DNA from: Escherichia phage vB_EcoM_ULIM9
Sequence record: OQ850288
Length of the DNA: 64,000 nucleotides
Direction: 5' to 3' (one strand)
Shown here: one piece after another, positions 6,239-62,930 of the stretch
Position numbering within the stretch: position 1 is the first letter of the stretch
How the letters are laid out: each line of letters opens with the position of its first letter
Translations under genes and position numbers: made by a program
The notes under the pieces: model-generated
Database searches by the model: none
Seen by the model: the letters and a program-made list of their open reading frames with translations, nothing else
Told to the model about the DNA's origin: nothing

Positions 6239-8192
6239 TTAATACAGGTGGAATCGTTGAGCTTTGACGCTGCTCTTCAGTATAGACTTCACCAGTCTCA
6301 CGGTCAAACACTTCATCCTCATAATGTGGCAAAGAGTCATCGTAATGGTCTTCAGCTTCACCAATACCAAACTGTTGGCGAATATTTTCTGCTGCACCAT
6401 CAATGTCAACTCCACAACCAGAGGCTTTAATGAGACGTCCTGTATCTGGATTGTACCAAGTATGACCAGCAATACCTGTTGACTTACCGTGACGACGGCA
6501 TTTAGTTAACTTGATTTTTGTCAAGTTTTTCTTAACAGGGTCTGGGTCAACCTTGTTACGCATTAACAGAATGTTGTTCATAGAAATCTGGAAATACGCA
6601 CCAGAACCTTTAATATCCTCTTCAGAGATATCTCCACCTTCGGAGTTAGCCTTCTGACCACCTGCACTCTTACGAACGTGACAGACGTTCACCTGTGCAT
6701 ACTGGTAGCGTTTGCAACGACGCAATAGCTCAGACAAAACTTCTTCTTCATCCGTATCAGAACGTGACAGGGCTAACGTGATAGGGTCAAGAATGATAAT
6801 CTTACAGTCTAAACTGTTAACAAGATAGTCAACAAACTCTAGCAGGTTATCTTGGTCAATTGCCCCTTGATGGTCTACGATGTGGATACGACGACCTTTA
6901 GACAGTTCTGCGTGTGCTTCCTTCAATTCATCCCAATCACGTTCGTCATAAGGAATCTCAGAAATCTGCTTGCTCAGGTGGATTGCACAAAGCATCTCCA
7001 TCAACTCTTCATAGGTATCTTCTACAGGAATTACACCAATATTGTAATCGGTATCTTTCCAAGCAGTATAAATCATTTCACGAGTGTATGCAGATTTACC
7101 CACTGAAGATGGTGCTGCCAGAGTTGTAATCTCACCTAAACCGTAACCACCATAAGTCAGTCTGTTCAAATCCCCGAAAGATTCTGGGAAAGGAATCAAT
7201 GGAATCTGACCACGATTCTTCATTGCCTCAAAACCATCTGCGAAGTTCTTGATACCAGCAGGACAGTAACGAGGTGCATTGTAGATACGCTGCTTAAACC
7301 CCTCCAGAACTGTATCTTTCTCTTTATAGAACTTTGTCCACCACTCGTTAAGGTCTTTTACACCTTCTGGATACTGGAATAAACGAACCTTCTCAATAGG
7401 TAGGATACCAGCAGCCTCTTTAGTGGCTTTAGCACCTGCTTCATCGTTATCAAAGCACAAGTAAATCTCATCAAATGATGTAATGTACTGATAGTTATCC
7501 TTGATAGACTTGATGTTTGCACCTGATGGAACAGATACGTGACAGTAATTCTTACGACGAGACTTATCTTTAATCGCAAGAGAAGTCATATAGATTGCTG
7601 TCGCACATTCCATCTCACCTTCCCAGATGAATAGACGGTTACCACCTTCTGGAGCAATCCATGAACCGAACATTGCCAGTTCGCCTTTAATGTCTCCAAC
7701 ACCACCTGAGAAGTCTTTTAGCTTACCTCGTAGGTGTTCTTTTGGATGGTCTTCTGGATAGCGATGACGTACACGGTAGCCAACGTGCTCTAGCTTACCA
7801 TCTTCATTACGTTTGTAAGTTGGATAGAAATGCGCATCAATTTCACCGTCACTGTCAATGTCAACCTTGATACCCAATCGCTCAAGAACTTTTGCAGGAA
7901 TCTTCCTGTCTTTTAAGTCCATTGCTTCAAGGTTTTCTTTTACATCGTCTAAATCCATTCCACGGAAAGTACGGTTTTTATTGTCTGAACCAGTAGAATA
8001 AGTGCTCACGATTTGTCCTTTATCAAAATCCCACTCTGGGAAACCTTTGTTACAACTAAAGCAAGTCATTGAATAAGAATCATCGTCATGATGATAGATT
8101 GAACCAGCATCTGATGAACCACAACGTGGACATGCGCAATGACCAACAAACTGACCAGCCTCTTTCAATTTACGACCTTTAGACATTAGCAC
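6201..8192 (-). CDS. DNA primase/helicase (T7 gp4-like)
   Basis: 663 aa; N-terminal zinc ribbon (CPRCGSSD...CFSCNKG), TOPRIM-like LCFDNDEAGAKATKEA, helicase Walker A LAAPSSVGKSAYT and Walker B IIILDPIT. Confidence 0.8.
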   Translation of the reverse strand: MLMSKGRKLKEAGQFVGHCACPRCGSSDAGSIYHHDDDSYSMTCFSCNKGFPEWDFDKGQIVSTYSTGSDNKNRTFRGMDLDDVKENLEAMDLKDRKIPAKVLERLGIKVDIDSDGEIDAHFYPTYKRNEDGKLEHVGYRVRHRYPEDHPKEHLRGKLKDFSGGVGDIKGELAMFGSWIAPEGGNRLFIWEGEMECATAIYMTSLAIKDKSRRKNYCHVSVPSGANIKSIKDNYQYITSFDEIYLCFDNDEAGAKATKEAAGILPIEKVRLFQYPEGVKDLNEWWTKFYKEKDTVLEGFKQRIYNAPRYCPAGIKNFADGFEAMKNRGQIPLIPFPESFGDLNRLTYGGYGLGEITTLAAPSSVGKSAYTREMIYTAWKDTDYNIGVIPVEDTYEELMEMLCAIHLSKQISEIPYDERDWDELKEAHAELSKGRRIHIVDHQGAIDQDNLLEFVDYLVNSLDCKIIILDPITLALSRSDTDEEEVLSELLRRCKRYQYAQVNVCHVRKSAGGQKANSEGGDISEEDIKGSGAYFQISMNNILLMRNKVDPDPVKKNLTKIKLTKCRRHGKSTGIAGHTWYNPDTGRLIKASGCGVDIDGAAENIRQQFGIGEAEDHYDDSLPHYEDEVFDRETGEVYTEEQRQSSTIPPVLSEDADDCPFETE

Positions 8193-9994: not shown

Positions 9995-10417
9995 TTATTT
10001 CTCTCTCAGTTGGTTAAGTTTCTTTCTAGAACATTTTAAGTTTTCAGATGAAGAAAAGTCAAGTGTCTTTTCAGAACGTGGATAATAGTGCCTATCCCAA
10101 GAAGTTTCAACATCGTTAATCAGTGACGCTAGATTACACAGGTCTGTACCACTTTGCAACTTCTTTTTAAGAGAATCTAGTAAAGCAACTGTGTCTTTAG
10201 CTTTACGTCTCGCTGTAGCAACATCTTTCATATGCTCAAATACAGAGCATTTTAAGTCATCTTCATAGTTTTCAGACAACTCTATTTCATGTTGTATATC
10301 AACCATTCTCCTGTGATGGTGAGCATATTCCCGTTGAGCAGCAATGTCAAGTTCTTCCAACTTCTGCAAAGCTCTAACAAAGTCAGCTATGTCTGGGTGA
10401 ACAAACATTTTCTGCAT
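9995..10417 (-). CDS. hypothetical protein (140 aa)
   Basis: ORF track; first gene of the minus-strand block at a divergent promoter region. Confidence 0.5.
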   Translation of the reverse strand: MQKMFVHPDIADFVRALQKLEELDIAAQREYAHHHRRMVDIQHEIELSENYEDDLKCSVFEHMKDVATARRKAKDTVALLDSLKKKLQSGTDLCNLASLINDVETSWDRHYYPRSEKTLDFSSSENLKCSRKKLNQLREK

Positions 10418-10674
10418 GTAAGCCTCTTTTAAGTAACTATTAAGTTTTAATCTTTTATCTTAACGTATTCTATACGTTATACTTTAAAGCTTTTTAAAAG
10501 CTATTAAATAATCTTTTAAGAGTTTTAAAGTATCTGTATAGTTAAACTGTTAAGTAACCTTTTAAGTAAAAACCCACTTCGCAAAGATTAACACCTTGTC
10601 AAGTACATTGTCAACTTGCTTTTTATAATTTTTTGCAGTAATGTATGAGGTTAATGATTTTAGAGGGAGTAAAA

Positions 10675-13374
10675 ATGGAAAACGTAGATTTTAAGAACTT
10701 ACATTTAGTTGGTGATACAGAAACTGATGGTTTACTCCTTGAGTTCACTAAAGTTCACGTAATGGCTTTTGCAGACTATAAATCTGACGATGAAGAGCCA
10801 CCTGTATGGGTCTTCACAGATGAGCCTATCCTCGGTCACAAGTACACTAAGTACATTAAGGGTGGTTTACGTGAAGGTGTTGAGTTTGCGTTAAAGGCAA
10901 AACGACTTTGTATCCATAATGGTCTCGGTTATGACTGGTGGGTTTTCAATCACATTGCACCGGATTTATGGAACTTTGATAATCCAAAATGTAAGCCGTG
11001 GAGTAATTTCTTTCAGGACTCTCTTATCCAGTCTCGTGTTCAGTGGATGGATAGACCAACTCCAAAGGGTTATAAAGGTGCTCATGGTTTGGCTGCATGG
11101 GGTGCTCGTGTTGGTGTTCGTAAGCCAGAGATTGAGCATTGGGGTGTGTGGAATGCAGAAATCTTCACTCGTGTTGTAGAAGATATTCGTATTAACGCCA
11201 AAACTAAACGGGCACTTGATAATGAGTATCTCAAGCTTAAGAAGTGTGGCATAGACACTTATGAAACCTACATGCGAGCTAAAGAAACATCTTTCTGGAT
11301 GAGTCAACAAGCTATCAATGGCTGGAAAGCTGATAAAGAGCTTATGGAGTTCCATGTAAAGGAACTTGACAAGTTGACTAATGAGCTTGCTTCAGAGGTT
11401 GAACCACATCTACCACCAACTATTAAGACCAAAGGTAAAGTCACTGGAGAAGAGTTTGCAAAAGCTTGGAATGAGTATGTTGAAACATTTGGTCATGCAG
11501 ATGGACTGAAAAGAATTACCAAGTACCCTAAGACAAAGTATCGTCAGCAGGTACGTAATGGTGAGATGCAGACATATGAAATCAAGCCATTTGGTAAGCC
11601 AACTACAAAGATTTTTAACATTGAAAAGAGAAATTGCTATACACCAACCAACTCTGTAACTGGTGAAGAGTACAAGGAAGGCTTTGTAGCAATGAAGGAT
11701 GCTCGTGCAATTTGCAATGAGTTGAATGCAAAGATTGGTAAGAAATGCAAAGACTGGAAGCCAGTAAAAACAGTCAAAACTGTGAAGTACTATAACAGCC
11801 ACGTTGTTAACCACTTTGAGCTTGAGTCAAGTCGCTACACAGGTTTGATTGATGCACCATATACACCAATTGAGTTTGAAGTTTCTCGTATGACTCAGGT
11901 AGCAGTTGTTAAAGACTACTTGAAATCAGTTGGTTGGATTCCAGATGACTGGAACTACAAGAAAGACTCAGACGGTCGCCCTATCAAAGTTTGTCGTTTC
12001 AAAGACAATAAAAAGATGATTACAAAACATCCTAAGTGGCAGGAAATGGTTGAGCGGTGCGGTTTGAGCTATGTTGAGCATGAAGGTGTACAGTACATTG
12101 AGCATAACTGGTCTGTTAAGAAGTACACAGACTTACTTGAACCTTGTCTGATTAGGACTTCACCAAAACTTACTGAATCATCTTATGATACGATTGAAGG
12201 TGAGCTTGGACAGAAGATTGCTAAGTACTATACTTTGATGCACCGACGCAGAACTATTGAGAACTCAAAGGATGATGAAAAAGGTTGGTTGAACCAGATT
12301 CGTCCTGATGGTCGCCTTAGTGCTGGTGCAATGGTGTTTGGTACTTCAACTGGACGTATGACACAATATGGTATTGTAAACGTACCGTCTGGTGCTGCTG
12401 TCTATGGAGCACCTATGAGGGCAGTGTGGATTTGTGAAGAGGGGACTAACATTGTTTCTGTTGACCAGAACTCAGCCCAGCTAGTTCTTCTTTGTAACTT
12501 TATGGGTGATGAAGACTTCACTAAAGCGGTAACTGAGGGTAAAGAGTCAGTAGAATTTACCAAGCAAGAAGATGGGAGATATTATTGCAAACATCTTGAT
12601 AAGTACCTTAATCCAGAAACTGATAAGTATCTTCGTTATGATGCTGAGAATGACCTCTATGAAGTCTACACAGGTACTGATGCACATACACTGAATAGTA
12701 TTTACTTTGGTCTGAACAAGGAAGAAGACATTGTTCGTTGTAGGGAGACACAGGATGAGGAACTTCTCCACGAGATTACAAAAGGTCGTAAGAAGAGCAA
12801 AAATGGCATCTACGCCCTGTTATTTGGAGCCGGAGACGAGAAGTTTGCAAAAACTATCAAGGCATCATCTACGGAAGAAGGTGCATTGACTAAACAAACT
12901 TACTATATGCGTCTGCCAAAGATTAAGAAGTTGCTTGATAGCTTAGAAGCCGATTTTAAGGCGTCTAAAAAGGCTCTGGAAGAGGTTTTTGGGAAGAATT
13001 CTTCAATTGCTAAAGGTGGTTATATCAGGGTCGCTGGAGCATGGATATGGTGCAAATCTCCACATAAACTACTGAACTACCTCCTGATGAGTTCGGAAGC
13101 ACAGATTCAGAATGAGGCCATCAACCTAGCAGCAAGAAAAGCCTGTGAAGATGGCCTGACAAAACTGAATGCTCGAAAACCAGCTATCGGAGCAAGGTTA
13201 CTTCTGGCATATCACGATGAAAATAGTTGGGAATGCCCAGAGGGTATGACACATGATATGAAAGCAATTGCTGACTGGATGTATGGACAAGCTTCAAAAA
13301 ACTTAGGTTTGAGGAAAGAAACACTTGTAACTGGTACAGCAAAGGTTGGTAAGAGCTGGTTGGAGGTACATTGA
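10675..13374 (+). CDS. DNA polymerase, family A (Pol I-like) with 3'-5' exonuclease domain
   Basis: ORF track frame 10645-13374; start moved to ATG 10675 (MENVDFKNL), which follows an AGGGAG Shine-Dalgarno; DTETDG exonuclease motif near N-terminus; about 900 aa. Confidence 0.85.
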   Translation: MENVDFKNLHLVGDTETDGLLLEFTKVHVMAFADYKSDDEEPPVWVFTDEPILGHKYTKYIKGGLREGVEFALKAKRLCIHNGLGYDWWVFNHIAPDLWNFDNPKCKPWSNFFQDSLIQSRVQWMDRPTPKGYKGAHGLAAWGARVGVRKPEIEHWGVWNAEIFTRVVEDIRINAKTKRALDNEYLKLKKCGIDTYETYMRAKETSFWMSQQAINGWKADKELMEFHVKELDKLTNELASEVEPHLPPTIKTKGKVTGEEFAKAWNEYVETFGHADGLKRITKYPKTKYRQQVRNGEMQTYEIKPFGKPTTKIFNIEKRNCYTPTNSVTGEEYKEGFVAMKDARAICNELNAKIGKKCKDWKPVKTVKTVKYYNSHVVNHFELESSRYTGLIDAPYTPIEFEVSRMTQVAVVKDYLKSVGWIPDDWNYKKDSDGRPIKVCRFKDNKKMITKHPKWQEMVERCGLSYVEHEGVQYIEHNWSVKKYTDLLEPCLIRTSPKLTESSYDTIEGELGQKIAKYYTLMHRRRTIENSKDDEKGWLNQIRPDGRLSAGAMVFGTSTGRMTQYGIVNVPSGAAVYGAPMRAVWICEEGTNIVSVDQNSAQLVLLCNFMGDEDFTKAVTEGKESVEFTKQEDGRYYCKHLDKYLNPETDKYLRYDAENDLYEVYTGTDAHTLNSIYFGLNKEEDIVRCRETQDEELLHEITKGRKKSKNGIYALLFGAGDEKFAKTIKASSTEEGALTKQTYYMRLPKIKKLLDSLEADFKASKKALEEVFGKNSSIAKGGYIRVAGAWIWCKSPHKLLNYLLMSSEAQIQNEAINLAARKACEDGLTKLNARKPAIGARLLLAYHDENSWECPEGMTHDMKAIADWMYGQASKNLGLRKETLVTGTAKVGKSWLEVH

Positions 13375-13377
13375 TTA

Positions 13378-13911
13378 ATGGATTTAATTTTACAAAAACG
13401 TTTAAAGGAGCTGCTGCACTATGACCCCGAAACAGGGGTCTTTACTTGGCTTCGTAGAGAAGGTAAATCAAGAGCTGTTAGTGTTTTTAACAGTAATTAT
13501 GCAGGAAAGGTGGCAGGTAATATCCAGACTGATTCAAGTGGTCATAAACAGATTAGTATCTATTTTGACAAGAAAGCACATAAAGCACACAGGCTCGCAT
13601 GGCTTTACGTGTATGGCAAGATGCCAAAAGGTATCATTGACCATATCAACGGAGACTCGCTTGACAACAGGATTGTAAACTTAAGGGAAGCAGATGATTT
13701 TCAAAGTGCTTGGAATAAAGGTAAACCAGTCACCAATAAATCTGGGTACAAGGGTGTAAGTCTTAAGAAGAAGTCTGGTAAGTGGGTCGCACAGATAAGT
13801 TATAAAGGTAAGAAGATGTTTTTAGGTCACCATGACACACCAGAAGAAGCCCATAAAGCTTACTGTGAAGCTGCTATTAAACTCCACGGAGAGTTTGCAA
13901 AACTAAGTTGA
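13378..13911 (+). CDS. HNH homing endonuclease with AP2-like domain (free-standing, directly after DNA polymerase)
   Basis: 177 aa; LHYDPETGVFTW, HNH core GIIDHINGDSLDNRIVNLR, AP2-like YKGVSLKKKSGKWVAQISYKGKK; paralog of 3291-3806. Confidence 0.8.
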   Translation: MDLILQKRLKELLHYDPETGVFTWLRREGKSRAVSVFNSNYAGKVAGNIQTDSSGHKQISIYFDKKAHKAHRLAWLYVYGKMPKGIIDHINGDSLDNRIVNLREADDFQSAWNKGKPVTNKSGYKGVSLKKKSGKWVAQISYKGKKMFLGHHDTPEEAHKAYCEAAIKLHGEFAKLS

Positions 13912-13962
13912 CAAGGTTCTCATGGAAGAGTACCTTATACTATATCTTATATAGGAGGGCTT

Positions 13963-16111: not shown

Positions 16112-16140
16112 TTGACAAGTCAGGTGTTATAGCTTATTTT
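16112..16140 (+). promoter_or_regulatory. sigma70-like promoter (TTGACA-17 nt-TATTTT)
   Basis: TTGACA 16112-16117, 17-nt spacer, TATTTT 16135-16140, about 45 nt upstream of ATG 16185. Confidence 0.4.
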
Positions 16141-43605: not shown

Positions 43606-43681
43606 GTAAAATAACTTGGAGAATCCGAAGGGACTCGAACCCTTATAAACCTGTTTTGCAGACAGGCACATAGCCATTTCT
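43606..43681 (-). tRNA. tRNA-Cys (anticodon GCA), CCA encoded
   Basis: Hand fold: acceptor GAATCCG/CGGATTC, anticodon loop CUGCAAA, T-arm with TTCGAGT. Confidence 0.55.
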
Positions 43682-43685
43682 GTCA

Positions 43686-43778
43686 CGGATTCAAATTGGA
43701 GGAAGATACCAGACTTGAACTGGTACACCGATTTCTCAGCTACTGGCAGTTTAGCAAACTGCTCCCTTACCTTTTAGG
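43686..43778 (-). tRNA. tRNA-Ser (anticodon GCU), type II long variable arm
   Basis: 93 nt; acceptor GGAAGAT/ATCTTCC, anticodon stem GCAGT/ACTGC with loop UUGCUAA, long variable arm, T-loop TTCAAGT. Confidence 0.55.
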
Positions 43779-43791
43779 GTTAATCTTCCAT

Positions 43792-44526
43792 TTATTTCTG
43801 TAATGCGCTCTTCATTTCTGGTGTTGCAATAGTGTCAATCACACCAGTTTTACAGGCATCGTCAAACCAGTCTGGTAAGATACCTGCTAAGAACCCATTG
43901 ATATTCGTTTTAAGGTACTCTGCAATAAGGGCAGCTTCTTCTTCAATCATCTGCACAACTTCATCTGCATAAGCTGTAATCTTTGAAATACCTTCATTAA
44001 TCTTACTGACAGCTTGGTTAGCTAAATCAGAAACAGTATCAAGACCCTTATCAATAGCATCTTGTAAGTCACTTAACACACCGTTAACACTGTCTAGTGT
44101 GCTGTTAATCATGTCAATAGCTTGCTGACCATACTCTGTAGCAACACCCATAATACCACTAAATGGTGTACAACCAACTTGTTCTCCTGCTGCACCCATA
44201 ACATTGGAATACCCCTTTGCTACCTGCATACGTGATGAAAACTCATCAATAGACTTTTGACCATAGTCTGTTAGGGTCTTAGTAGTTGCTGTAGTGCTTG
44301 TCAGGCTTGTTGTAAAGCTGTTTAGAAGGACTGTTGTAAGTCCAGCAGCAACAAGCTTCTCCTTCATTGTAGGGTCTGTTACAGAGCTAATAGAGCTTAC
44401 AAGTGATGTAGAGGCAGCTACGGTTCCACCGAGAACTGCTGCACCAGTAATAAGTGGGTTAGAAAACCCTTTACCGGTTTTTAAGAGATTAAAAATCTCC
44501 TTACCTTGTTCTGTCATCTCTTTCAT
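43792..44526 (-). CDS. hypothetical S/T-rich protein embedded in tRNA array
   Basis: ORF track frame 43792-44742 trimmed to Met at 44524-44526 (MKEMTEQ) because the upstream 72 codons run through two tRNA genes. Confidence 0.5.
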   Translation of the reverse strand: MKEMTEQGKEIFNLLKTGKGFSNPLITGAAVLGGTVAASTSLVSSISSVTDPTMKEKLVAAGLTTVLLNSFTTSLTSTTATTKTLTDYGQKSIDEFSSRMQVAKGYSNVMGAAGEQVGCTPFSGIMGVATEYGQQAIDMINSTLDSVNGVLSDLQDAIDKGLDTVSDLANQAVSKINEGISKITAYADEVVQMIEEEAALIAEYLKTNINGFLAGILPDWFDDACKTGVIDTIATPEMKSALQK

Positions 44527-44542
44527 TAAGCACCTTTGAAAT

Positions 44543-44618
44543 TGGTAGTCCAGTGGGATTTGAACCCTCTTCTCATGTTTTTCAGACACGCGCTTTACCA
44601 TATAAGCTACTTGGACTA
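44543..44618 (-). tRNA. tRNA-Phe (anticodon GAA)
   Basis: Anticodon loop CUGAAAA, T-arm GGTTCAAATCC. Confidence 0.5.
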
Positions 44619-44623
44619 TAAAT

Positions 44624-44699
44624 TGGGGTGACCTACGGGATTTGAACCCGTATAGACCATGTTCACAGCATGGGTCATTACCATTTATGATAAGGCCAC
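44624..44699 (-). tRNA. tRNA-His (anticodon GUG)
   Basis: Anticodon stem CCATG/CATGG with loop CUGUGAA; T-arm ACGGG/CCCGT. Confidence 0.55.
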
Positions 44700-44730
44700 A
44701 TTTAAGGACTCTCGTAAGAACCCTTAGAAG

Positions 44731-44806
44731 TGGCAGCGGCATAAGGATTTGAACCTTAATAGGACAGCTTCAGAGACTGCTGCATTGCCAGTTATGCTAT
44801 ACCGCT
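44731..44806 (-). tRNA. tRNA-Gln (anticodon CUG), tentative
   Basis: D-arm GCAT/ATGC, anticodon loop CUCUGAA, T-arm TAAGG/CCTTA. Confidence 0.45.
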
Positions 44807-44811
44807 AAAAT

Positions 44812-44882
44812 TGGTACTCCATATCGGATTCGAACCGATACATAACACAGATTTTAAGTCTGGCCTCTCTGCCAATTGGAGT
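44812..44882 (-). tRNA. tRNA, anticodon read as UAA (Leu-type) but short variable arm; isotype uncertain
   Basis: 71 nt; T-arm ATCGG/CCGAT perfect; anticodon loop CUUAAAA. Confidence 0.4.
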
Positions 44883-44892
44883 AATGGAGCAT

Positions 44893-44968
44893 TGGCGGGG
44901 GATGTTGGAATTGAACCAACTTCTTCGATTTCAAAGACCGAGGTTTTAACCTTGTAAACTAATCCCCT
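44893..44968 (-). tRNA. tRNA-Gln (anticodon UUG), tentative
   Basis: D-stem GTTT/AAAC, anticodon loop CUUUGAA, T-arm GTTGG/CCAAC. Confidence 0.45.
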
Positions 44969-44976
44969 TTAATTCT

Positions 44977-45534
44977 TTACTTTCTCAGTGGATGAATAAA
45001 GAATGCCAACATAACTCTTTCCCTTGAGAATGCTCTTTCTTCTGGGACAACACTTTTTAGTTTCCATCCAATATAAATTCTCCAGTAAAACTGTTTACCA
45101 AAGACTTTAATTGATGGGATAAAAGCGAATAATCCCCAAGCATTACTGTTCCACATTAGGAGATAACCAGTCTGATTATCTTCAGGGTCAGAACTTACGT
45201 TGATATTACCTTTCCACTTAGTAACATCTTTGACATCTCTTCCTAATACATGGTAAGAGAAGTTATAAGCTTTGTTTCTCCAGAGCCATCCGACTCTCTG
45301 CATGTAGACACCAAACTTACCAATCTTTCTAATCTTAGCCCATCTTTTAACGTGACCTTCATCACCATCAATCGGGTTGTCATAGGTTTCCATCCATCTG
45401 AATCCAAAAGGTAGATGTCCTTTCTTCTCACTGTAGAATGGAACTACGAAAGGTGCTAAGATGACTGCTAGGGTTGCTGCAAATGGTTCTAGTAAAGCTA
45501 GGAAAATCCATGAAGCATACTTCAAATATCTCAT
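44977..45534 (-). CDS. membrane protein embedded in tRNA array
   Basis: 185 aa; N-terminal hydrophobic helix (WIFLALLEPFAATLAVILAPFVVPF). Confidence 0.5.
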   Translation of the reverse strand: MRYLKYASWIFLALLEPFAATLAVILAPFVVPFYSEKKGHLPFGFRWMETYDNPIDGDEGHVKRWAKIRKIGKFGVYMQRVGWLWRNKAYNFSYHVLGRDVKDVTKWKGNINVSSDPEDNQTGYLLMWNSNAWGLFAFIPSIKVFGKQFYWRIYIGWKLKSVVPEERAFSRERVMLAFFIHPLRK

Positions 45535-45553
45535 CTAAATAGCCTCTTAAAAT

Positions 45554-45631
45554 TGGTGTTCCAAGACGGATTCGAACCGTCACTAATACAAGGTTTGAGC
45601 TTGCATCCTCTGCCAATTGGGATACTGGAAC
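45554..45631 (-). tRNA. tRNA, anticodon read as CAA; isotype uncertain
   Basis: T-arm GACGG/CCGTC; anticodon stem GCAAG/CTTGT with loop CUCAAAC. Confidence 0.4.
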
Positions 45632-45632
45632 A

Positions 45633-45707
45633 TGGTACTCACTAAAGGACTTGAGCCTTTTTCTTCATCTTGTAAGGGTGATGTTTTACCATATAAACTA
45701 AGCGAGT
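45633..45707 (-). tRNA. tRNA-Val (anticodon UAC), tentative
   Basis: D-stem GTTT/AAAC, anticodon loop CUUACAA, T-stem AAAGG/CCTTT. Confidence 0.45.
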
Positions 45708-45802
45708 GTGAAAGAGGTCTGAAGTTGTGCCGCTAACTCAACTCCGTGGAATTTGTTACGGTCTTCAGTTGACACCAGCGGTCTTTCACTTGACCTCTGA
45801 AT

Positions 45803-45879
45803 TGGTGCTGCTCACAGGACTCGAACCTGCATTTCCATCCTTACAAGGGATGTGTAATAGCCAATTATACGAAAGCAGC
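45803..45879 (-). tRNA. tRNA-Thr (anticodon UGU)
   Basis: Anticodon stem CATCC/GGATG perfect, loop CUUGUAA; T-loop TTCGAGT. Confidence 0.55.
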
Positions 45880-45885
45880 TTTATT

Positions 45886-58232: not shown

Positions 58233-58265
58233 AGCCTCCTTAATTGGGGGCTTTTTAATTTTTAT
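58233..58265 (+). terminator. intrinsic terminator ending the plus-strand gene block
   Basis: AGCCTCC-ttaattg-GGGGGCT followed by TTTTTAATTTTT. Confidence 0.55.
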
Positions 58266-58269
58266 AAAA

Positions 58270-59798
58270 TTTTATCGGTTGTCCCAACCTCTGGGTCACC
58301 ATCATATGTGAATAAAATATCTACCCTTCTTAACAACCTTCTTAATCTTACTCTCTATATAGTTATATAGTACTATATAGTATCTTAGTATCTATCTAGT
58401 GGTCTTAATAGCCCCTCTGTATAGACCTTCTAAACACTCTTCTAACAAGCCTTCTTAACAACCTATACAATCACCTTAACCATCTCTCTATACCCTCTTA
58501 GAAGCCCCTATACACCTCTTAATCTCTAGGTAAGCTATGTTACCCTCTATAGGTGTTCACTAGGTATTACTAAGCCTCTATATAGACTGTTTTAACAAAC
58601 TTAACAGGAATATCTTTACAGACCTTATCTCACAAGGTCTAACACGGTACTAACAAGGTATCTTATAAGCCTGTTATTACCTGTATTTTAGAAAGACTGT
58701 ATAGGTAATTATTCAGATTTTTAAAATTTTTATAAAATAGGACTGTCAAGTCATTTTTTAGGGTCTTTGAAGGAACTGAAAAATATCTGTAGAAGATGTA
58801 TATCTGCTTGGTAGCCCTTAACATCCCTGTAACATCCCCTTTGCAAAATTTTAAAATATCCTTAACAATCTCTTAACAACTCTCTCAAGCTCTTAACATC
58901 TCTTCAGAGGTCTTAACAGATTCTTAACAGAACTAACAAAGCTGTAACAAGTTCTTAACAGTCGATACATGGTCTTTATAGTTTCTTAACAGATGACTAA
59001 CAAGAGCTAACAAGTTAATTTTTAAGAGTTATTTTGTTAAGACAATTAACAAGTTCCTAACAAGTGTCTAATCTTTTTAACAAGCTATTAACATGGTCAC
59101 TATCTCTTTTCTTATCGTTCCCTTTCACTCTTAGTGATTCTCTAAATAGCCCTCTTAAAAGCTCTCTATAGCTCTTTGTAAGCTCTTTTAAGTCTCTTCC
59201 TAGTAATTACACCCCAACTATGAAGAAAGCTCTTTATAGGGCTTTACAGGGGCTTTAAAGGCTCTTACAAGGCTTTTACTTGGTCTTAACAGAGATTTAA
59301 CAAGGGGCTAACAAGTTGCTAACAAGTGCCTTAAAAGCATAACTATGTAGGGATTGTTAAGAAATTGTTAAGAAAATGTTAAGGGGGCTAGCATTTACGT
59401 AACTTTTAAGCAACTTTTAATCTACTTCATAGCCCCTATAACATACTTTTAAGACTCTAACAAGCCCTTTTTAGTTATTCACAAGAATACTGACGAGATG
59501 ATAAAGCTTACACCCTTATAAGATTCTTTTAAGCCTCTATAAAGCCCTGTAAAGAGCTTTTTAAGGTTGGTTAATGCAATCCCTTAAGTTAGGTTGATAA
59601 GGCTGTTATAGAGCTTTATAGAGCGTTTTAGGGGTTGCCCTTCCCTTTCGGGTTATGGGCTTATATTTAAGTTGATTTGATAAGGGGCTATAGAGTAATC
59701 TATAGAGTTATTGCTTTTTAAGGTATGAGATAGATTCTATCGAATTAGTGGGATAGATTCTGGAAAGGGAAAGGATTGTATAGGGATTTGATAAGACG
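58270..59798. repeat. ORF-free, strand-skewed region dense in short direct repeats
   Basis: No ORF of 60 aa or more except one overlapping the flanking terminator; plus strand very G-poor; recurring CTTAACA(A/G), CTAACAAG, (C)TATAGAG, TGTTAAG x3 near 59350, GGGATAGATTCT x2 near 59730. Confidence 0.6.
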
Positions 59799-59826
59799 TA
59801 AAAAAGCCCCTATGAGAAAGGGGCTG
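59799..59826 (-). terminator. intrinsic terminator ending the minus-strand small-gene block
   Basis: Minus-strand hairpin AGCCCC-loop-GGGGCT followed by TTTTTT. Confidence 0.55.
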
Positions 59827-59863
59827 TTGAGGTATCTGGGGCTATTTAGCCCCGCTGCGTCGA

Positions 59864-62834: not shown

Positions 62835-62930
62835 CTCCAGTTTAGGACTTTATTTAGTGGGGAAGGTCATTCCCTCCCCGTTGATGTGTAATTTAATCTA
62901 TCTAAAAACCAGTGTCAACAAAAATTTTTT
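62835..62930 (-). repeat. type A upstream cassette, copy 5 (extended)
   Basis: About 90-nt near-identical to copy 6, including GTTGATGTGTAATTTAATCTATCTAAAAACCAGTGTCAACA extension. Confidence 0.65.

Follow-up and report, generated by a model that had tools for sequence, protein, structure and literature searches.

The 64,000-nucleotide (nt) stretch of Escherichia phage vB_EcoM_ULIM9 analysed here (record OQ850288; hereafter the window) comes from a Felixounavirus, that is, a Felix O1-like genome, with about 96-97% identity to phage bumzen and its relatives and in reversed orientation relative to Felix O1 AF320576. Our subject is two intergenic regions of this window that share a tandem TTGTCAA motif. 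The first, the 10.5-kb region (10418-10674), lies between gene 97 on the minus strand (9995-10417) and the DNA polymerase gene on the plus strand, whose actual start is the ATG at 10675; the second, the 50.4-kb region (50331-50579), lies between gene 41 on the minus strand (DUF5681, 49959-50330) and a small plus-strand open reading frame (ORF). They correspond to the Felix O1 intergenic regions 96/97 and 40/41, respectively, exactly where the four transcription units of that phage diverge (PMC3185647). The Felix O1 genome paper of 2010 described only the promoter 'P41' in these two regions and none in 96-97, reported no RNA polymerase or specificity factor of the phage's own, and left the temporal control and the promoters of the 96-97 region unresolved (PMC3185647).

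An original prediction made from the DNA letters had described the two regions as homologous control regions at minus-to-plus switch points. Gene orientations bear out the switch points, and the homology is confirmed by local alignment of 10418-10675 with 50331-50580, which scored 51 against 22.0 +/- 3.4 for dinucleotide shuffles (z = 8.5), while the reverse-complement control of the same two regions gave z = 2.9. The shared blocks are also as described: within the window, the 20-mer TTGTCAAGTACWTTGTCAAC has exact matches only at 10596-10615 and 50462-50481, with 0.02 expected even when up to three mismatches are allowed, and the 14-mer AACCTTTTAAGTAA occurs exactly only at 10556-10569 and 50421-50434. 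The starts of the two TTGTCAA copies are separated by 12 nt in both regions.

Read on the minus strand, the tandem motif becomes GTTGACAAWGTACTTGACAAGGTG, that is, two perfect (6/6) sigma-70 -35 hexamers, TTGACA. The prediction that the spacing does not suit sigma-70 holds for the plus strand, where the distances at 10.5 kb are 10 and 22 nt, but not for the minus strand, on which a TAnnnT hexamer follows TTGACA after 17-18 base pairs (bp) and the sigma-70 spacing therefore fits. The leftward element of the 10.5-kb region, P97, reads AAAAAATTATAAAAAGCAAG-TTGACA-N18-(TGT)TAATCT with a predicted start at about 10578, and that of the 50.4-kb region, P41, reads TTAAAAAAGTTG-TTGACA-N17-TAGGCT with a predicted start at about 50445; P97 faces gene 97 and P41 faces gene 41, each on the same strand. 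Both carry A-runs of 5-6 at -38 to -46, and these A-tracts match the proximal UP subsite of rrnB P1. Upstream of the -10 hexamer, P97 has a canonical TGn (TGT-TAATCT), and in P41 an invariant TG lies immediately next to the hexamer, off register by one base. For phage AYO145A, the GenBank record (KR014248) holds a promoter feature on the same strand over exactly 10585-10614 (TTGACA-N18-TAATCT) and another same-strand promoter feature over the 50.4-kb copy.

All TTGACA hexamers of the window were screened for two companions, a run of four or more A at about -37 to -49 and TAnnnT at N16-18. The combination was found at 12 sites, compared with 0.23 in shuffles, and all 12, including 10614(-) and 50480(-), are co-oriented with the local genes. 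Other members are the promoters of gene 42 (49946) and of the transfer RNA (tRNA) cluster (48351, 48442), the repeated early promoters (62918, 63969), and a site at 16112 on the plus strand ahead of a plus-strand gene. Since the family sites point with the local genes, P97 and P41 would serve minus-strand operons. The related sequence that had been noted at 16112, TTGACAAGTCA, is indeed present on the plus strand, but there TTGACAA stands ahead of a plus-strand gene, from which it follows by analogy that the copies at 10.5 and 50.4 kb point left. The claim that the motif heads the plus-strand operons thus fails, as the motif is the reverse complement of a TTGACA -35 hexamer standing 17-18 bp before a minus-strand TAnnnT. 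Taken together, the tandem TTGTCAA probably represents the minus-strand -35 region of two paralogous leftward promoters for host sigma-70. The original prediction had taken the motif on the wrong strand, and its interpretation, which considered a phage-specific promoter or operator class, is mostly wrong: the 20-mer is found just twice, so that it defines no genome-wide class, and what recurs across the genome is the sigma-70 consensus.

The plus strand offers a rival reading, in which the repeat would be a phage-specific promoter or a Pho-box-like activator or operator site, 9 bp before a -10, for the DNA polymerase and gene-40 operons. At 10.5 kb this strand reads TTGTCAA-N5-TTGTCAA-N9-TATAAT, and at 50.4 kb the same with TAACTT, which resembles class II activator geometry; TTGTCA also matches five of the six positions of a -35, and a promoter scan lists TTGTCA-N18-AATAGT with TG at 50474. 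Yet other genera lack the plus-strand TATAAT of 10625 (it is TGAAGA, TGAAAC or TCAAAA in Michonne, CHB7 and Sf13), the repeats stand at about -40/-52 versus -64/-76 from the best rightward promoters of the two regions, and a repeat period of 12 here, 11 in phage Zyzzx and 13 in a third copy at 61.2 kb is ill-suited to a dimer of fixed spacing. Together with the two occurrences of the 20-mer and with a Felix O1 genome from which no polymerase or specificity factor is reported, these observations make the plus-strand reading highly improbable. The Pho box of the PhoB/OmpR type is CTGTCAT-N4-CTGTCAT, 10 bp ahead of the -10. The repeat resembles it as a TGTCA-containing 7-mer direct repeat near a plus-strand -10-like hexamer at 10.5 kb, but differs in its period (12, with 11 and 13 elsewhere, instead of 11), in its unconserved plus-strand -10, and in that its hexamers are the -35 consensus of the opposite strand. 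A Pho-box-like reading was ruled out by the period of 12 and the unconserved TATAAT, and a PhoB/OmpR direct-repeat site by the three periods and the want of a conserved same-strand -10. A T4-late-type TATAAATA after the motif at 50.4 kb was likewise rejected, being TAATAAAT or TAATAAAAC in Mooglevirus and Suspvirus, and a Fis site or marbox in the linker between the repeats, judged by eye, was dropped as the linker is polymorphic.

Instead, the rightward genes may be served by weaker promoters standing back-to-back with P97 and P41, TTGCTT-N17-TAATGT for the DNA polymerase and TTGACT-N17-TACCAT for the gene-40 block. At 10616-10644, TTGCTT-N17-TAnnGT is kept in four lineages, including Michonne, CHB7 and Sf13. 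The candidate polymerase -35 at 10616-10623 (+), CTTGCTTTTT, includes TGCTT, the core of the T4 MotA box, and has TAnnGT 17 bp further on; no MotA/AsiA homologue is reported for Felix O1, and no screen for one was made here.

To follow the elements across the Ounavirinae, we compared orthologues from Mooglevirus (Michonne, Sf13, Sf15, Sf19, SFPB, Mijalis), Suspvirus (CHB7, SUSP2, EcSzw_1), two metagenomic lineages and about 20 Felixounavirus contigs, as well as the more distant Arno18, SE5, Panisse, phiEa21-4, Zyzzx and P778; single-protein scans of viral contigs returned close relatives only. Both hexamers and the TG are invariant in Felixounavirus, Mooglevirus, Suspvirus and the two metagenomic lineages. 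The -10 of the 10.5-kb region varies only at inner positions (TAATCT/TAGTCT; orthologues have TGn plus TA(A/G)TCT), and the variants at 50.4 kb, TAGGCT, TAGCCT, TAAGTT and TAGTGT, all keep T-12, A-11 and T-7. The 6-nt linker between the hexamers, by comparison, is ATGTAC, ATGCAC, ATGCGC, ATACAC, AATCAC, ATTCAC or AAGCAC at 10.5 kb (10603-10608) and AAGTAC, AAGGAC, AATGAC, TTCCTC, AGCCTC or AGGGGA at 50.4 kb, and among 21 Felixounavirus sequences polymorphic sites fall in the linker (10604-10606, 50471) and none in the hexamers. The linkers of the two copies show no co-variation within a genome. Concerted evolution, considered because Felix O1 has GCAC in both copies where the window has GTAC, was ruled out by 20 paired genomes with independent linker variants. 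Further away, SE5, Panisse, Arno18 and P778 have a single leftward TTGACA-N17-TAnnnT at the equivalent place, Kolesnikvirus has TTGACA-N17-TACATT at the P97 position, and Zyzzx has tandem hexamers with a period of 11. What these data show is the fit to consensus, the family, its orientation and the conservation; that sigma-70 uses the promoters, where they start, and whether the second hexamer or the downstream boxes described below play a part are inferences.

A search for same-strand TTGACA pairs 6-26 bp apart over the whole window returned four, against 0.26 by chance, one in a coding region and three intergenic, at 10614/10602, 50480/50468 and 61227/61214, the last with a period of 13. On the minus strand at 7853-7864, abutting TTGACATTGACA lies within the primase/helicase coding region; it is kept in Felix O1 and has no promoter context. 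The pair at 61.2 kb belongs to a third module, P22, which continues with GGGGGTTT and then three CT(T)AAAAG / CTTTATAG boxes. It aligns with the 10.5-kb module over about 105 nt (z = 8.8), and the order common to the two is A-tract, both hexamers, TAACTT, CGAGGGGGTTT (versus CGAAGTGGGTTTT), ATCTAAAAGG, CACTTAAAAG and CTTTATAG. Mooglevirus retains the tandem at 61.2 kb along with its TAnnnT, as TAACTT or TAGATT. These alignments support the view that the two divergent regions are paralogous control regions, which together with the 61.2-kb module form a sub-class sharing more than a minimal promoter. A search of the remaining 22 kb of Felix O1, which the window does not cover, turned up no other full-length paralogue. 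The segment 61140-61253 sits in a variable early-gene region with matches at 3-6 places in each genome of related phages, a pattern suggestive of promoter/terminator cassettes that are repeated.

The second TTGACA was ruled out as a promoter in its own right, there being no TAnnnT at N15-19 from it in P97 or P22, and lacking a -10 of its own it is therefore treated as a conserved accessory site. An invariant copy next to a variable linker means that selection acts on the second hexamer as such, roughly one turn of the helix downstream from the -35 that does the work. Within the family, the -10 hexamers of the three tandem promoters are the weakest, matching at 3/6 each. A literature search for duplicated -35 hexamers found no description. 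The features discussed here and below are collected in Table 1.

Table 1. Positions of promoter elements, leaders, box arrays and neighbouring candidate promoters in the window.
Feature	Position	Strand	Remarks
P97 A-tract	10619-10634	-	AAAAAATTATAAAAAG on the minus strand; about -40 to -57; UP-element type
P97 -35 no. 1, TTGACA	10609-10614	-	6/6; right-hand TTGTCAA; invariant in all orthologues; AYO145A promoter
Second TTGACA in P97 spacer	10597-10602	-	12 bp downstream of no. 1; invariant across three genera
P97 extended -10	10585-10593	-	TG (10593-10592), n, TAATCT (10590-10585); spacer 18
Shared 14-mer at P97	10556-10569	-	TTACTTAAAAGGTT on the minus strand; about +10 to +23; first of two 12-bp tandem boxes, next TTACTTAACAG
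AT-rich leader of P97	10459-10554		nested inverted repeats of CTTWWWAG-type boxes
Candidate weak DNA-polymerase promoter	10616-10644	+	TTGCTT (10616-10621), N17, TAATGT (10639-10644); predicted
P41 A6 tract	50485-50490	-	just 5' of the -35 (TTAAAAAAGTTG-TTGACA)
P41 -35 no. 1, TTGACA	50475-50480	-	same as Felix O1 P41; AYO145A promoter feature
Second TTGACA in P41 spacer	50463-50468	-	period 12
P41 -10	50452-50457	-	TAGGCT; spacer 17; TG abutting upstream
Shared 14-mer at P41	50421-50434	-	TTACTTAAAAGGTT; about +12 to +25; second of two tandem boxes (ATACTTAGAAGA-TTACTTAAAAGG)
P41 leader	50346-50426		imperfect dyad symmetry over about 80 bp; 30 potential pairs
Candidate gene-40 block promoter	50506-50534	+	TTGACT-N17-TACCAT; identical in SUSP2, Sf13 and Michonne
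Non-coding box array	58260-59850		CTTAACAG, CTAACAAG, CTTTTAAG and CTMTATAG boxes; period about 10.5 bp
Third module, P22	61149-61253	-	A-tract; TTGACA 61227-61222; second TTGACA 61214-61209; -10 TAACTT 61204-61199

Conservation extends from the promoters into the leaders. A comparison of 20-21 distinct Felixounavirus sequences shows that nucleotide diversity in the two intergenic regions is 4-15 times lower than in the adjoining protein-coding genes: it is 0.0098 at 10.5 kb (14 variable sites in 258), against 0.017-0.090 for the flanking genes, and 0.0035 at 50.4 kb (5 in 250), against 0.045-0.059, gene 41 alone having 66 variable sites in 369 nt. By BLAST, the regions are at least 99% identical in 182 and 164 phage records, and the surrounding 5 kb mostly 90-95%. 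The leaders are built of CTTAAAAG / CTTAACAG / CTTTAAAG-type boxes, some arranged as 12-bp tandems and others as nested inverted repeats, and one box copy overlaps each Shine-Dalgarno sequence. The pattern CT[TAC][TA]A[ATC]AG occurs 187 times in the window versus 55 in shuffles, and clusters at the three modules and in an array at 58.3-59.6 kb. Arrays of these boxes also come after the leftward promoter of Arno18, SE5, Panisse, Zyzzx and P778, whose sequences can no longer be aligned there. Between genera the direct and inverted copies have changed in parallel, giving CTTAAC/AACG/CGTTAAG, CTTTAC/TACG/CGTAAAG or CTTTAT/TATG/CATAAAG. The leaders are also extreme in composition: 10429-10528, about +50 to +150 of P97, is the least stable and most AT-rich 100 bp of the window (18% GC, 4.3 standard deviations from the mean), the P41 leader ranks fifth, and a stretch of about 100 bp with 17-25% GC comes after the leftward promoter in every Ounavirinae relative examined.

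The box arrays lend themselves to a further proposal, namely that the second TTGACA and the CTTAAAAG / CTTAACAG boxes from +10 onwards are candidate operators of a conserved phage or host protein, which would repress or time the three promoters and coat the 1.6-kb array near 59 kb. The enrichment, clustering and roughly 10.5-bp period of the boxes are consistent with this, as are their persistence in distant relatives without alignable sequence, the parallel change of direct and inverted copies, a dyad symmetry equally strong on both strands, and the weakness of the -10 hexamers in the tandem -35 promoters. No candidate protein has been identified, and the boxes are AT-rich and partly palindromic, so some of their enrichment could reflect composition or ribosome-binding-site context. 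On balance we regard the operator function as possible but rather unlikely.

The low stability of the leaders brings to mind transcription-activated origins of replication. The primary origin of T7 consists of the tandem promoters phi1.1A/B and an AT-rich region, and oriF/oriG of T4 of a middle promoter and a downstream unwinding element. In a comparable way, and compatibly with the promoter reading, each module could be a promoter with an AT-rich unwinding element, whose leftward transcript primes replication or opens the DNA. In the window and its relatives the promoter is directly followed by such an AT-rich element, which in the case of P97 is the most meltable DNA of the window; the regions are less diverse than a promoter usually needs to be; gene orientation diverges at both; and the 10.5-kb module lies between the DNA polymerase and the primase-helicase block of a replisome annotated as T7-like. 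The resemblance to the T7 and T4 origins thus includes the promoter set directly before the most meltable DNA, the nearby replication genes and the T7-like polymerase and primase-helicase. Unlike those origins, the modules have a host sigma-70-type promoter, ordered box arrays with dyad symmetry and three copies. AT-rich leaders are common behind strong promoters too, three copies, one of them in a variable early region, are many for an origin, ordered box arrays favour protein binding over simple unwinding, and a literature search found no reported Felix O1 origin. An origin function is accordingly a tentative addition that we hold to be improbable. The operator array and the origin do not exclude each other, each being about equally doubtful.

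Alternatively, the leader might act as RNA, in the form of a long AU-rich hairpin in the 5' untranslated region of the gene 97 and gene 41 messengers, for instance an RNase III site or a translational operator. Folding of the predicted leaders is more stable than that of shuffles (z = -2.6 and -3.1), and pairing is kept through one double change at 50.4 kb and two at 10.5 kb as well as several G-U changes. In sharp contrast, in 13 of 14 sequences the complementary strand gives an equally good or better fold, which attributes the folding signal to palindromy of the DNA; in addition, the same 3' columns support two mutually exclusive helices, independent substitutions are few, and Rfam gave no match apart from the tRNAs. 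With both strands folding, a strand-specific leader RNA was set aside as unsupported, and an RNA role of the leader is in our view distinctly unlikely. Along with the parallel change of direct and inverted boxes between genera, these observations speak for symmetry at the level of DNA and for co-evolving binding sites instead of one RNA helix.

Within the 58260-59850 array, boxes are separated by 11, 21, 31 and 42-43 bp, and their orientation is reversed around 59340. A number of other assemblies have one of their ends in the array, at about 59370-59430, 59188 and 58957, and because they break there it probably holds a direct terminal repeat and packaging ends, so that it probably contains the genome termini. 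In Felix O1 the array (12305-13928) is unannotated, with 84-92% identity, and more variable than its surroundings. The terminal repetition of T7 is flanked by the short-repeat arrays SRL/SRR, which we cite as a lead only; the present array is like them in its 7-8-bp AT-rich repeats, roughly helical spacing and position near the genome ends, but its termini are inferred from assembly break points only. Physical ends could not be located from UAB_Phi87, whose record starts arbitrarily in the tRNA region and whose paper gives no coordinates, and the 'repeat_region' features of garuso and humlepung span only 30-35 bp.

Returning to the host sigma-70 promoters, we propose that RNA polymerase of the host would be recruited by the UP-type A-tract and the perfect TTGACA and would open the DNA at the weak TAnnnT -10, 17-18 bp downstream, with help from the upstream TG. 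Transcription would start at the predicted positions and run leftward through an AT-rich leader of 115-160 nt that opens with CTTAAAAG-type boxes, P97 driving the gene-97 / deoxynucleoside monophosphate (dNMP) kinase / primase-helicase block and P41 driving gene 41, gene 42, the tRNA cluster and structural genes. The second TTGACA, taken as an accessory site, may tune these three promoters with their weak -10 hexamers, perhaps by offering sigma region 4 another place to dock or by binding a regulator. Several points weigh against this picture. The -10 hexamers of P97 and P41 match TATAAT at only 3/6 and were missed by a program promoter scan, the TG of P41 lies outside the canonical extended -10 register, and a literature search found no start-site data for any Felixounavirus. 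A standard promoter model also leaves the second TTGACA, the box at +10 to +25 and the near-invariance of about 250 bp unexplained. Finally, by reverse transcription polymerase chain reaction (RT-PCR) of Felix O1, a coarse assay, genes 41, 96 and 97 peak at 25 min and not at 5 min, with gene 22 at 5 min; a 25-min peak is unexpected for unregulated strong host promoters, and the timing hints at regulation while it cannot choose between the readings.

If these additions are combined, the three modules would constitute a dedicated control class kept throughout the subfamily Ounavirinae, in which host polymerase is loaded by the duplicated -35 and the transcript or open complex is used or gated by a box-reading protein, the modules at 10.5 and 50.4 kb each serve as a transcription-activated bidirectional origin, and the same protein organises the array at the genome ends. 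We put this forward as a speculative and unlikely scheme.

Strong sigma-70 promoters with UP elements are well known from E. coli rrnB P1 and from the early promoters of T4, T5 and T7 (A1-A3). P97 and P41 are like them in the A-tract at -40 to -57, the TTGACA, the 17-18-bp spacer, the T-12/A-11/T-7 of the -10 and the upstream TG, and also in their predicted use by unmodified host polymerase ahead of early or replication genes. They differ in the weak -10 (3/6), the second TTGACA conserved in the spacer across genera, and the box at +10 to +25. As promoters they are of a common kind, and part of this has been published or annotated before: P41 of Felix O1 (Whichard et al. 2010, PMC3185647) and the KR014248 features have the same sequence, strand and downstream gene, although the Felix O1 paper paired the P41 hexamer with TATAGG at N15 and we pair it with TAGGCT at N17. 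Both the paper and the AYO145A record are silent on how the modules are related as paralogues, on the doubling of the hexamer and the module at 61.2 kb, and on the boxes and the extreme conservation, and in the literature searched we found no description of the module paralogy, the duplicated -35, the box family or the extreme conservation.

Some neighbouring features deserve mention. Gene 42 (48462-49877, minus strand) encodes DUF2828 and DUF7788 directly upstream of the tRNA cluster, and in Yersinia phage P778 the homologue bears the annotation 'RNA-binding protein'. The DUF5681 protein of gene 41 has an N-terminal KGQSGNPxGRPKG motif that is often found in small-terminase-like proteins. The tRNA cluster comprises 20 genes by Rfam (43620-48295, minus strand) and is preceded by the strong family promoters at 48351 and 48442. 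At 62918 and 63969 on the minus strand stands an identical promoter block, TTGACACTGGTTTTTAGATAGATTAAATTACACATCAAC, which is the 39-bp repeat of the Felix O1 paper and contains a TTGACA-N17-TAAATT early promoter. In many relatives the DNA polymerase is annotated as two coding sequences, and the match is about 270 bp longer than in the window (10645-13911), which indicates an insertion splitting the polymerase gene there; here, an HNH/homing endonuclease ORF follows the polymerase (13378-13911). The records MG065664 and MG065668 ('Campylobacter phage A132/A126') and GU169904 ('Staphylococcus phage SA1') hold Felixounavirus sequence of 95-98% identity; contamination or chimerism of these records is probable.

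Typing and biocontrol of Salmonella and E. coli make wide use of Felix O1-type phages. The present analysis assigns the predicted promoters for leftward transcription of the replication block and of the tRNA and structural block to a 12-member family of host-type promoters, and the additional conserved parts of the three paralogous modules become targets for work on start sites, origins and binding proteins.

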